A DNA stretch of 42,883 nucleotides from the sequence record PQ299149; one strand, written 5' to 3'. The translations under genes and the position numbers were made by a program. A model generated the notes under the pieces. The model saw nothing but the letters and a program-made list of their open reading frames with translations. It searched no databases and was not told the origin of the DNA. Of this stretch, positions 24,296 through 26,340 are shown piece after piece (position 1 is the stretch's first letter; each line of letters starts with the position of its first letter). Source of the stretch: Escherichia phage LLS.

Positions 24296-24832
24296 TTATC
24301 TTTTACCATTTTTTCTGTACCACGTTTCGGCTGCTTGCAAGCTAACACCGAATGTGAAACTGATTTCGTCTGGTGTCATTCCAGGCGTGACAAGCTTTTC
24401 ATCTATCAAGAAATGGCTAGCAAATACATCTGCCTGCCATTCACTATCCTCATATATTTTATGACCGCCAGGCACCTTGCTCCTCGCATATGCAACTTGA
24501 TTACGATGCATAACTAAATGGCCAAGTTCGTGTGCGACTGTAAAGCGTGCGTGATTATCACCATCACAGAGGGCGTCGTAAACAGATTGCTGAAGAACGA
24601 TTTTGTTCCGATCTGGATAGGTCACTGCATATCGTTTCGGAAGTTCGTGATCCTCGACAATTTCAAGATCGATAGTTTCGGATGCCATCAAGGCTTCAAG
24701 AAGCACTTCAAGCCTCAAGTATTCTTGATTTGAAACTTGCAGGGCTTCTCTAAGTCGATGTGCATAGGATTTGATCTTGTCGTGGCTTAAAGGTGAAACT
24801 CGATGGCCAAGTTCTCGTTTCATTACGGTCAT
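24296..24832 (-). CDS. ImmA/IrrE-family zinc metallopeptidase (M78/DUF955-like)
   Basis: 178 aa with HEXXH motif in FTVAHELGHLVMH; directly downstream of and co-oriented with the XRE gene. Confidence 0.7.
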   Translation of the reverse strand: MTVMKRELGHRVSPLSHDKIKSYAHRLREALQVSNQEYLRLEVLLEALMASETIDLEIVEDHELPKRYAVTYPDRNKIVLQQSVYDALCDGDNHARFTVAHELGHLVMHRNQVAYARSKVPGGHKIYEDSEWQADVFASHFLIDEKLVTPGMTPDEISFTFGVSLQAAETWYRKNGKR

Positions 24833-24835
24833 TAT

Positions 24836-25186
24836 CTAGTCCTTCAGCATTTTGTTAAGTTTATCAAGCTGTTCAGGACTCAGATCTTTAAACTTTCGAG
24901 CAAATACTAGCATTAACTCTTTATTCTGATCCTCTGCGTCGGACATATCGACCTTAATGGTTGGCTGAGAAATAGCAGCCTGTCGTTTAAGTTCCTGAGC
25001 ATCTTCCCCAGTTAGTCCGAAAACAGCCTCTACCGTGTTTACTAAAGTGTCCGGGATGGCCCGTTTACCTAATTCAATGGCAGATAAGTAAGCTGAGCTT
25101 ACTCCCAGCATGTCCGCCATGTTTTTAAGTACCATACCCCGGTCTATTCTCAGTTTCCTGAGAGTTTTACCAAAGCTAGTTACCAT
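24836..25186 (-). CDS. XRE-family HTH transcriptional regulator (ImmR/CapH-like)
   Basis: Start at 25186 (AGGAGG RBS 6 nt upstream) rather than the upstream track start at 25279; HTH signature LRIDRGMVLKNMADMLGVSSAYLSAIELGKR. Confidence 0.75.
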   Translation of the reverse strand: MVTSFGKTLRKLRIDRGMVLKNMADMLGVSSAYLSAIELGKRAIPDTLVNTVEAVFGLTGEDAQELKRQAAISQPTIKVDMSDAEDQNKELMLVFARKFKDLSPEQLDKLNKMLKD

Positions 25187-25543
25187 GTTGCGCCTCCTAC
25201 ATATCCTGAATACTTTATACAACCCTTTCGAACTAAATTCAACAAAAAATGTAGAATAATTCAAGCTCAACGTGTGCATACATTCTACGCCACTAGTCCC
25301 TGTTATGCAATGGAGTGAATAAAAACACTATATGTTGTATGTTTTTGAGTGTAGACACGCTTCGCTTTATGAAAATCGTTCGCCTGACTTTTTTCGTTAT
25401 CAGCGGAAAGCCAAAAAACAGTCTTTGGGAACTGGTATCAACAGGCGTTTTGGTATGCAGGGCATGATCGAAGCGTTTATCTATGGGACCCCATGACAGA
25501 GCCATAATCCACGTTATAATCGGGGGAAAAAAAGGGGATCAAG

Positions 25544-26305
25544 ATGAATGTGAATTTATTACAGCTTTGCTATGAGGGCGAAGGTGGTGAAAGCTACATA
25601 CGCAGTATTAATGAGAAAGGGCAATTTTACGTTTCTTTAGCTGATGTTTTAAAGACCCTTTCTATTGAAAACAGAAAAATGGATGGTAAGTCGCCAAAAA
25701 GCTTGCTTCCAGTAATTAAGGCCGTTATCCAAACCTTGGATCCTGATGAGATCAAAAACATCCCTATGATCGAAAATGGGCAGACAACGAGTGAAGCGTT
25801 CTTGACTGAGCCAGGTCTGTACCGAGTCCTTGCTCAGGATACATCCTCTGCTGGCAAGAAATTCCAGCGATGGTTATTTCATAAAGTGTTGCCCTCTATT
25901 CGTGAATTTGGCCAATTTCCACCTCCGCCAAAAAAGGAACAGTCTGAGATAAGTGCTTTTGCTACAAGTCTTCAACAGACTGTCAATGCTTTAGTAATGG
26001 AGATTGCAAAACGAGAGGAGCTGGAAAGCAGGGTTAATGATGTTGAGCTCAAAGTTAACTCATTGGAGAGTTTACGAGATCTTTCTCAATTTCGGAGTGT
26101 CCCACAGCGTTTGATGGAGTTGAGTCTTGAAGTAATGTCTATTGATGAGCTTTGGCACTGGTGTGAAAAGTTACGCAGTGAAAGAGGTGCAGAAAAGATA
26201 AAATGCCCTTCAGGTATCGGTGTAAACACTTTATACCCATTAGCGCTGGTAGATGAGGCTATTGCAATCTACCAGAAGAATGTTGAAGCAAGATCAAGAA
26301 GCTGA
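25544..26305 (+). CDS. Bro-N domain antirepressor-like protein
   Basis: 253 aa; N-terminal region (FYVSLADVLKTL...GLYRVLAQDTSSAGKKFQRWLFHKVLPSI) fits the Bro-N/Ant N-terminal pattern; coiled-coil C-terminus; divergent from the XRE gene. Confidence 0.65.
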   Translation: MNVNLLQLCYEGEGGESYIRSINEKGQFYVSLADVLKTLSIENRKMDGKSPKSLLPVIKAVIQTLDPDEIKNIPMIENGQTTSEAFLTEPGLYRVLAQDTSSAGKKFQRWLFHKVLPSIREFGQFPPPPKKEQSEISAFATSLQQTVNALVMEIAKREELESRVNDVELKVNSLESLRDLSQFRSVPQRLMELSLEVMSIDELWHWCEKLRSERGAEKIKCPSGIGVNTLYPLALVDEAIAIYQKNVEARSRS

Positions 26306-26312
26306 AACAAAT

Positions 26313-26340
26313 AAAAAAGCCCGCATAAGCGGGCTTTTTT
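26313..26340 (+). terminator. Intrinsic terminator after the antirepressor gene
   Basis: AAGCCCGC-ATAA-GCGGGCTT followed by TTTTTT; second palindrome GGAGCCGCGGCTCC at 26349-26362. Confidence 0.75.

Follow-up and report, generated by a model that had tools for sequence, protein, structure and literature searches.

A candidate repressor-protease cassette with a small-protein gene and a separable Bro-N gene beside the attachment site of Escherichia phage LLS

The genome of Escherichia phage LLS (sequence record PQ299149; the whole stretch of 42,883 nucleotides, or 42.9 kb, is called the window below) carries an XRE-family repressor gene followed by an M78 metallopeptidase gene, and both are arranged divergently from a Bro-N gene that ends close to the phage attachment site (positions 24,296 to 26,340). 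The original prediction had treated these genes as one regulatory module in which the loss of the repressor releases the Bro-N protein as an antirepressor. We tentatively favor a different reading, to which we give somewhat less than an even chance, namely that two adjacent but separable accessory cassettes meet here: a proteolytic derepression switch that comprises the repressor, the peptidase, a downstream gene for a 46-aa protein (orf46) and a candidate antisense RNA, and next to it a self-contained Bro-N gene. This reading builds on the gene content, protein domains, conservation pattern, mosaic boundaries and RNA complementarity observed in the window (Table 1) and in related loci that were compared with it (L001 etc.).

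Each of the two units is found without the other in close relatives. Repressor and peptidase are present at 96-99% identity but without Bro-N in L003 and L004, where other sequence follows beyond the position corresponding to 25344-25347 (in L003 a lipoprotein gene). The Bro-N gene in turn has a 94% identical counterpart behind umuDC in Pluralibacter gergoviae that has the same promoter and lacks the XRE/M78 pair, with homology to the window from 25488 across the terminator and on into the att arm, and a 65% identical copy, again without the pair, sits at a prophage end in Pantoea. Elsewhere the repressor cassette lies in a nin-type region (L017) or beside an integrase gene (L018), and in Klebsiella phage ST13-OXA48phi12.4 (L140 1652-2849) the genes divergent from xre encode a 71-aa ORF and an SppA-like peptidase at a distance of 145 bp. 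The divergent neighbor of the regulator pair varies from phage to phage and can be Bro-N, a lipoprotein gene, or SppA with a small ORF. Coliphage Flotzy, which is ~96% identical to the window over 92% of the first 22 kb (structural genes), lacks the whole block and has kept the dinI/orf85 pair followed only by a UmuD-like gene before the integrase; the block is therefore accessory. By its own promoter and terminator, its absence in Flotzy and its place in a variable slot, the Bro-N unit fits the description of a moron, an accessory prophage gene transcribed as a unit of its own.

The same boundaries are apparent in the 357-bp region between the divergent repressor and Bro-N genes (25187-25543), whose arrangement and length had been described correctly. 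Compared with relatives it falls into three parts, of which the first (25187 to ~25347) is conserved, the second (~25347-25488) is not, and the third (from 25488) is conserved again. Judged by these alignments, the XRE/M78 unit and the Bro-N unit are separate mosaic blocks with breaks at ~25347 and 25488, and Bro-N is probably not the target of the XRE/M78 pair. The claim that it is the pair's obligate target does not fit the occurrence of each unit without the other at 94-99% identity.

Promoters and operator-like sites are distributed over these blocks in a way that links the putative operators to the repressor operon only. A promoter for this operon can be read from the sequence (TTGAAT-N17-TATAAA) and has an E. 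coli counterpart, TTGATC-N17-TATAAG, at the same position and spacing; our consensus scan did not list it because the scan rule demands a T at position 6 of the -10 element, which TATAAA lacks. Its -35 element is overlapped by a 21-bp palindrome, ATTCAACA-N5-TGTAGAAT, and a second site, TGcAtAcATtCTAC, follows close by and becomes a perfect palindrome, TGTAGATAATCTACA, in L003. These sites contain the inverted elements that had been noticed before (TGTAGAAT at 25250-25257 and ATTCTACg at 25282-25289), which are indeed present though they match in 7 of 8 positions rather than perfectly. Three TGTAGAAT-like sites (at most 1 mismatch) crowd into 53 bp (25237-25289) as compared to 20 on both strands of the 42.9-kb window. 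The operator-like repeats are conserved in five loci, and the repeat and both promoters are conserved even in loci that are only ~76% identical overall. We infer from this pattern that the XRE protein binds these repeats. The conserved outer end of the cassette (GTGCAA ... AAAAACACTATATGTTGTATGT) is where homology with the loci lacking Bro-N ends, and the consensus scan found no plus-strand promoter in the conserved first part of the region (25187 to ~25347).

On the other side, the anticipated Bro-N promoter, ATGACA and TATAAT, is present with 11 of 12 matches to the consensus, although its spacer is N16 and not N15. Homology of the Bro-N cassette begins at 25488, 5 nt before the -35 element of this promoter. 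There is no operator-like site near it, and the operator cluster is ~240 bp away. Direct control of Bro-N by the SOS response was considered and dropped because the XRE/Bro-N intergenic region has no LexA box; the only one in the window lies at 23509-23528.

Regarding the genes themselves, all three open reading frames had been placed correctly, and a Pfam profile search assigns Peptidase_M78, an HTH_3-type domain and Bro-N to them. The repressor gene has the strong ribosome-binding site that had been pointed out (AGGAGG at 25193-25198), its stop codon is separated from the start of the equally oriented peptidase gene by a 3-nt gap, and an XRE gene lies directly upstream of the peptidase gene in all 40+ related loci. 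The peptidase is a HEXXH enzyme as proposed, with a zinc site composed of H101-E102-x-x-H105 and E131 in an ExxAD motif that aligns to the active-site region of CapP. The suggested likeness to ImmR/ImmA and CapH/CapP was borne out, with capP (7.8e-15) as the best PADLOC match of the peptidase and capH (1.7e-10) as that of the repressor. The repressor covers positions 5-96 of 103 of the capH profile, i.e., the HTH and a C-terminal region reported to mediate dimerization in CapH and DdrO, and the peptidase covers only positions 19-129 of 242 of the capP profile. In the PDB, CapP (7t5t, 1.2e-4) is the sole solved relative of the peptidase, and matches of the repressor include C.BclI, the HTH domain of CapH (7t5u), ClgR and DdrO. 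Profiles and gene order together argue for a genuine ImmR/ImmA- or CapH/CapP-type pair in its single-domain form.

This single-domain form sets the peptidase apart from CapP. With 178 aa it lacks the central HTH and C-terminal GAF domains of CapP, which has been reported to sense single-stranded DNA via the GAF domain and to have an ssDNA-binding groove between domains. Residues 106-130 of the peptidase (LVMHRNQVAYARSKVPGGHKIYEDS) contain no cysteine and hence no equivalent of the cysteine-switch loop between HEXXH and the third ligand that has been reported for about a third of CapP proteins. In size it is similar to single-domain COG2856 proteins such as ImmA (~160 aa; PMC2701414).

Comparison with characterized systems shows both kinship and differences. 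Like ImmR/ImmA of Bacillus subtilis ICEBs1 and c-phi105 with its ImmA-like protein, the locus has an XRE gene adjoining and co-transcribed with a single-domain COG2856/M78 HEXXH peptidase gene (~170 aa), resides on a mobile element near the integration module, and has operator-like repeats at the repressor's own promoter. Unlike there, the master repressor of the phage is a separately encoded LexA-like cI, a close relative does without the pair, no integrase gene follows in the gene order, and the cassette additionally includes a small basic ORF and a candidate antisense RNA. Nor is it evident that the repressor controls excision, transfer or lytic genes, with operators seen only at the pair's own promoter and the position of the module varying among phages. 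The locus resembles CapH/CapP (Lau et al. 2022; Calloji et al. 2026 preprint) in its profile matches and in its divergence from a neighboring gene, but this neighbor is no known defense system, is preceded by a promoter of its own at a distance from the operators and falls into another homology block, and the peptidase is without the central HTH, GAF domain and switch-loop cysteine. With DdrO/IrrE (PprI) of Deinococcus it shares the combination of XRE repressor and M78 peptidase and the derepression logic, and DdrO is among the solved relatives of the repressor; IrrE, however, contains a GAF-like domain, and its gene is not linked to the chromosomal regulon that it controls, whereas the locus studied here forms a compact cassette in a phage.

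In distant relatives, the pair is constantly accompanied by the small ORF directly downstream of the peptidase gene and not by Bro-N. Among peptidase relatives drawn from viral and metagenomic contigs, down to 31% identity, nearly all have such an ORF (31-50 aa, basic) in this position. In the window it is orf46, the third gene of the operon, which is closed by a terminator-like hairpin. The small ORFs come in two flavors, one of the orf46 type (YITIYRPFITVKGKRIFA..GLTAF) and one of 31-36 aa with the motif V.V..Y.RRR.GR.E.V..H.RS.P that replaces it in L122, L123, L129, L136, L023 and L049, including the Alteromonas locus that has Bro-N. The full trio of xre, peptidase and small ORF is found in Klebsiella phage ST13-OXA48phi12.4, where the small ORF is unannotated, and in Burkholderia phage vB_SBP36; in a Mu-like Pasteurella phage, the XRE and peptidase genes are present. 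The genome positions differ among these Klebsiella, Burkholderia and Pasteurella phages. Searched against 1.84 billion representatives, a profile of orf46 retrieved 91 proteins (E<=1e-3) that with few exceptions have 37-75 aa, with the family consensus IYRPYITxKGKRIYAxxYGLKAF. By these matches the orf46 family is real and diverse. The structural model of orf46 has four short beta strands (pLDDT 80) without any structural or family match found, and searches of Pfam, PHROGs, NCBIfam and PADLOC returned nothing.

Our best guess, by analogy with the antirepressors of TF-smORF modules, is that orf46 would be a small effector acting on a phage or host regulator. Like these modules (Silpe et al. 2023, PMC10432266), the cassette is accessory in a phage with SOS-cleavable cI and combines an XRE-type factor with a very small protein of no known family. 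The difference is that the TF-smORF factor activates a divergent smORF without any peptidase, whereas orf46 lies on the same strand downstream of the peptidase gene. About as likely would be a role as toxin, as in the three-component toxin-antitoxin (TA) systems proposed for COG2856-Xre pairs.

Between the peptidase stop codon and orf46, the opposite strand has a promoter-like site that matches the consensus in 11 of 12 positions, is joint best in the region, and is invariant across enterobacterial loci. Transcription from it would yield an antisense RNA of ~64 nt with a single-stranded 5' end, a small hairpin, and a terminator hairpin whose U run abuts the peptidase stop codon (predicted fold of -26.9 kcal/mol, z -5.3). 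The stretch is near-invariant between the window and the E. coli locus, where the flanking genes are only ~76-80% identical. A 1-nt indel between relatives within this otherwise invariant stretch argues against a conserved reading frame; the ORF 24208-24348 on the minus strand, whose frame is broken by this indel, was rejected as a coding gene. The terminator stem still pairs through a double change in L115 (and in L020 by manual reading). No Rfam family was matched at gathering score, and permissive settings produced only sub-threshold matches at chance level. The candidate RNA is present in the enterobacterial clade and one distant clade.

The 5' part of this RNA is complementary to the start of the peptidase mRNA (nucleotides +5 to +28). 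The predicted duplex has -28.9 kcal/mol, and only 3 of 17,120 windows across the whole stretch do better; when windows were ranked by complementarity in five loci (1,900-17,000 windows), the peptidase start came first to fourth. No other part of the peptidase gene is as conserved as the 21-nt target stretch, which is invariant between the window and E. coli. Both partners have changed together, as in UGAA/UUCA versus GCGAA/UUCGC and in the extended GUUUGCGAA/UUCGCAAAC of L018. In a clade with a ~48% identical peptidase (L121, L124), an RNA of different sequence is again complementary to these codons, and its perfect match of 13 nt ranks first among ~2,160 windows. Applied to all 245 nt of the downstream region, RNAduplex lacked discrimination owing to the predominance of long gapped duplexes, and a local-alignment test of the direct repeat was used instead. 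Here none of 1000 random windows was as good in the window, L018 and L121, and the result was marginal in L007, L023 and L140. From these sequence patterns we predict that the RNA is a clade-restricted brake on peptidase translation. Among the papers searched, none described a small RNA linked to ImmA-type pairs.

The small ORF and the RNA could alternatively be parts of a three-component TA or abortive-infection unit in which orf46 is the toxin, the XRE protein a transcriptional antitoxin, the peptidase the trigger and the RNA a second, type I-like brake, with Bro-N unrelated. COG2856-Xre pairs have been proposed as parts of three-component TA systems (PMC2701414), and a small basic ORF that is conserved and tightly linked, together with a candidate antisense RNA encoded between the peptidase gene and orf46, would suit such a unit; loci in the vicinity also often have other TA pairs (HicAB, RelE-like). 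However, orf46 lacks the hydrophobicity of type I toxins as well as any toxin domain, the RNA misses the orf46 ribosome-binding site and has the peptidase start as its best target, and the toxicity of orf46 is an assumption of this explanation. We give it a low probability.

The Bro-N protein has 253 aa and consists of the Bro-N domain (~1-122), a long helix (135-175) and a small C-terminal domain (181-252), an arrangement with helix and C-terminal domain that is shared by full-length family members of 33-42% identity. It has no KilAC/ANT domain in Pfam, although the same search finds ANT in the gene at 36007-36747. Its C-terminal half matched nothing in Pfam, PHROGs, NCBIfam or PADLOC, the C-terminal domain has no fold match, and the protein as a whole has no PADLOC match and no effector-like domain. 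The terminator downstream of the gene is as clean as had been stated (-20.9 kcal/mol, z -5.5).

By the locations of its relatives, the Bro-N family is found mostly outside prophages. Full-length relatives lie in or right after housekeeping operons (L055, L056, L027 5001-5744, L044-L046, L051, L054, L039). Single genes of the family stand between nrdD and nrdG in Aeromonadaceae and Aeromonas loci (L055 5001-5744, L056 5001-5747), and in Methylovulum one lies between glyQ and glyS together with an AAA_21 ATPase gene and a small ORF. Other sites are after nrdAB (Pseudomonas), after an SbcC-like gene, and near gyrB. The family thus looks like a self-mobile or island-type gene, though no nuclease domain is visible, and none of the papers searched dealt with Bro-N genes located within nrd operons. 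A gene of ~295 aa directly follows the Bro-N family gene in three Pseudomonas loci and is homologous to a Vibrio protein with a BstA_C domain (L042 5781-6677, L044 5756-6640, L045 5753-6640, L030 6670-7545). BstA is an abortive-infection protein, and these neighbors hint at a defense-related neighborhood of the family. A BstA-like nature of Bro-N itself was rejected by profile comparison with a BstA_C protein (probability 0.5%).

These properties bear on the circuit put forward in the original prediction, i.e., that XRE represses the divergent Bro-N gene until protease-triggered loss of the repressor frees Bro-N to act as an antirepressor on the LexA-like cI and to cause prophage induction. 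Divergent arrangements of this kind are known from CapH/CapP-regulated operons and also from Gram-positive lysogeny modules, the block is stably linked in enterobacterial ssrA prophages with Bro-N and the pair adjacent again in Alteromonas, and the PHROG families that match the Bro-N domain carry an antirepressor annotation. Modules that feed small antirepressors onto cI are known as well (PMC10432266). Yet the Bro-N promoter has no operator-like site nearby, with the cluster sitting on the XRE -35 element in a different homology block, and both units are found apart from each other as described above. The Bro-N protein does not qualify as a classical antirepressor, given its missing KilAC/ANT domain and a family found mostly outside prophages, in loci without a phage repressor to target. 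It resembles the Bro-N + KilAC/ANT antirepressors (P1 Ant type) in its N-terminal Bro-N fold and in its presence in a temperate phage, but has instead of their C-terminal part the long helix and a small unclassified domain, and its relatives mostly stand alone in chromosomal operons. Moreover, cI already has an S24 self-cleavage domain, the block is absent from the close relative Flotzy, and none of our observations connects Bro-N with cI. We consider this circuit unlikely.

A related scenario would have the pair act as a CapH/CapP-type regulator of defense cargo, where infection or DNA damage switches on Bro-N as an anti-phage or exclusion effector and other loci have other cargo. This would agree with capH and capP as the best PADLOC matches, with the variable divergent neighbor (Bro-N, lipoprotein, or SppA with a small ORF) as exchangeable cargo, with the Bro-N family genes beside BstA-like genes and an AAA_21 ATPase gene, and with the location of the module in a prophage accessory slot. 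What speaks against it is that Bro-N is without a PADLOC match or effector-like domain and unrelated to BstA_C, that the geometry of promoters and operators disfavors XRE control of Bro-N, and that the conserved partner of the pair is the co-transcribed orf46 and not the divergent gene. Its probability seems low to us, and we see no more than a slim chance that it holds.

In the two-cassette reading, cassette 1 (~23993-25347) would be a proteolytic switch akin to ImmR/ImmA, DdrO/IrrE and CapH/CapP. The XRE repressor would sit on the repeats over its own promoter and keep the xre-peptidase-orf46 operon low until a stress signal, by analogy with characterized relatives most likely DNA damage or infection, activates the M78 peptidase. 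Cleavage of the repressor by the peptidase would then turn on the operon with positive feedback, and its conserved output would be the 46-aa basic protein orf46. Pairing of the ~64-nt RNA with the peptidase mRNA at codons 2-10 would hold back translation of the peptidase. The Bro-N gene with its own strong promoter and terminator would form cassette 2 (25488-26342), expressed independently and not an obligate target of cassette 1.

Several observations weigh against this reading. Bro-N, xre, peptidase and orf46 occur together in ssrA-integrating enterobacterial prophages, i.e., in 31 E. coli genomes and in 8 of 8 Klebsiella places, and this four-gene linkage spans lambdoid and Mu-like backbones, with the 31 E. 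coli cases located at the end of a Mu/e14-like myovirus prophage. The Alteromonas locus again has Bro-N beside the pair, though in convergent orientation, and because of this repeated adjacency some functional link between Bro-N and the pair is possible. Divergent placement of the regulator pair relative to its cargo has also been reported as the rule for CapH/CapP-like regulators. The linkage may have arisen because a block close to att was inherited as a whole, or because the two units truly work together; the sequences speak rather for common inheritance, and a functional tie other than by a shared operator is possible. Furthermore, the peptidase lacks the GAF domain through which CapP reportedly senses ssDNA, and the function of orf46 is pure inference. 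As to the RNA, its transcription is a prediction and its structure shows little covariation, the local-alignment test finds no complementarity in L020, L120 and several distant loci (with none or marginal signals in many relatives), and concerted evolution of a short duplicated segment could mimic complementarity.

Table 1. Features of the studied region, with positions in the window.
Feature	Position	Strand	Remarks
Terminator-like hairpin closing the XRE-peptidase-orf46 operon	23993-24018	-	Consensus scan: 11-pair stem, then T run
orf46, 46-aa basic protein (MGITNTNEEYITIYRPFITVKGKRIFAHQRGLTAFPIKIPVSKYRG), third gene of the operon	24032-24172	-	
Promoter-like site TTGACA-N16-TATACT for candidate RNA	24198-24225	+	11/12 consensus, joint best in region; invariant across enterobacterial loci
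Candidate ~64-nt antisense small RNA	~24231-24294	+	Between peptidase stop and orf46
M78 (ImmA/IrrE-type) zinc metallopeptidase, 178 aa, single domain	24296-24832	-	Pfam Peptidase_M78, E 1.1e-9
Predicted RNA pairing site in peptidase mRNA	24805-24828	-	Nucleotides +5 to +28, codons 2-10
XRE-family HTH repressor, 116 aa, CapH-like C-terminal region	24836-25186	-	Pfam HTH_19/HTH_31/HTH_3, E 1e-8 to 2e-7
Putative XRE operon promoter TTGAAT-N17-TATAAA	25214-25242	-	Read from sequence; E. coli TTGATC-N17-TATAAG at same position and spacing
Operator-like 21-bp palindrome ATTCAACA-N5-TGTAGAAT	25237-25257		Overlaps XRE promoter -35
Second operator-like site TGcAtAcATtCTAC	25275-25289		Perfect palindrome TGTAGATAATCTACA in L003
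Conserved outer end of XRE cassette (GTGCAA ... AAAAACACTATATGTTGTATGT)	25290-25347		Homology with Bro-less loci ends here (L003/L004 alignment; blastn ends 25344-25347)
Bro-N promoter ATGACA-N16-TATAAT	25493-25520	+	11/12 matches; conserved in L001, L007
Bro-N family protein, 253 aa	25544-26305	+	Pfam Bro-N, E 1.8e-9, residues 19-117
Intrinsic terminator of Bro-N gene, hairpin and U run	26311-26342	+	-20.9 kcal/mol, z -5.5; conserved in E. coli
attP arm and core	26343-26500		Carries ssrA (tmRNA) 3' end from ~26468; near-identical to E. coli prophage end adjoining annotated ssrA

The window is a complete, circularly permuted genome of a lambdoid siphophage of HK97/mEp type. Over its first 22 kb, which encode head and tail, it shares ~96% identity with coliphages Flotzy, Eeyore, mEp043 and mEp213, and the gene order runs from terminase to tail fibers (118 to ~22500) over a Pin/Hin invertase gene, the DinI gene, the studied region, attP and integrase (27382-28557) to the cI-like gene (32359-32985, with an S24 self-cleavage domain and HTH_3 in Pfam). 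The studied cassettes occupy a variable slot with tail-fiber genes on one side and attP on the other, which in the prophage becomes the end beside host ssrA. In unrelated Mu/e14-like prophages of E. coli at ssrA, the prophage end is almost identical to the attP region (26343-26500). The window has no tRNA or tmRNA gene according to ARAGORN, with ssrA present only as a 3' fragment, and neither ARAGORN nor Rfam reported this tmRNA piece because it is only a fragment. In the early-right operon, the second antirepressor-like gene (Rha/KilAC) was confirmed (ANT at 2.5e-24 in Pfam), but it starts at 36007 and not at 36055 (36007-36747); it is a better candidate than the Bro-N gene for a classical antirepressor-type protein.

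The search for LexA boxes in the window returned a single site at 23509-23528 (TACTGTACATGCATACAGTC) where 0 are expected by chance. It lies between dinI (23185-23451, minus strand) and the divergent orf85 (23534-23791, plus strand; 85 aa, phrog_3893), which form an SOS-controlled accessory pair. Gifsy antirepressors are LexA-controlled small regulators, and by analogy orf85 could resemble them. Between attP and the integrase gene, an ORF of 286 aa with a hydrophobic N-terminal segment (26525-27385, minus strand, phrog_7259) overlaps the integrase stop codon. It has no match in Pfam, PADLOC or NCBIfam and may be an exclusion or lysogenic-conversion gene co-transcribed with int. On the far side of the slot, the Pin/Hin-type invertase gene (22579-23136) adjoins an oppositely oriented tail-fiber-like ORF (21429-22505), which suggests an invertible host-range segment (21429-23136) as in Mu, P1 and e14.

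Taken further, the observations might describe a four-part cassette without previous description, composed of a repressor, an ImmA-like protease, a protease-gating cis-antisense RNA and a basic beta-protein of 31-50 aa as output, that would be widespread in temperate phages of proteobacteria, with the Bro-N family as a self-mobile single-gene cassette that enters conserved operons (nrdD-nrdG, glyQ-glyS) as well as prophage ends and is not an antirepressor. We regard this joint reading as rather doubtful in its entirety. Taken singly, the parts are well known, and annotation pipelines already name them; concrete leads come from their four-part architecture and from the unusual places where Bro-N family genes occur. 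A second input into the phage switch would be reasonable, given the known accessory modules in which a small antirepressor acts on an SOS-cleavable cI (PMC10432266), and if this applies to the locus studied here, the conserved candidate output is orf46 rather than Bro-N.

Pairs of repressors and M78 proteases are among the commonest gene pairs in phages and defense islands, and their outputs are known for few of them (ICEBs1, Deinococcus, CBASS). The locus of phage LLS is a compact enterobacterial example that adds a conserved small protein as putative output and a candidate RNA that would set the threshold of the protease. It also illustrates that a gene called "antirepressor" by its Bro-N domain alone can be an unrelated neighboring cassette, which matters for regulatory circuits that are deduced from annotation. 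Should orf46 act on cI or on a host target, lysogeny or the fitness of the lysogen would receive a second input that is gated by the protease, in a phage already responsive to RecA.

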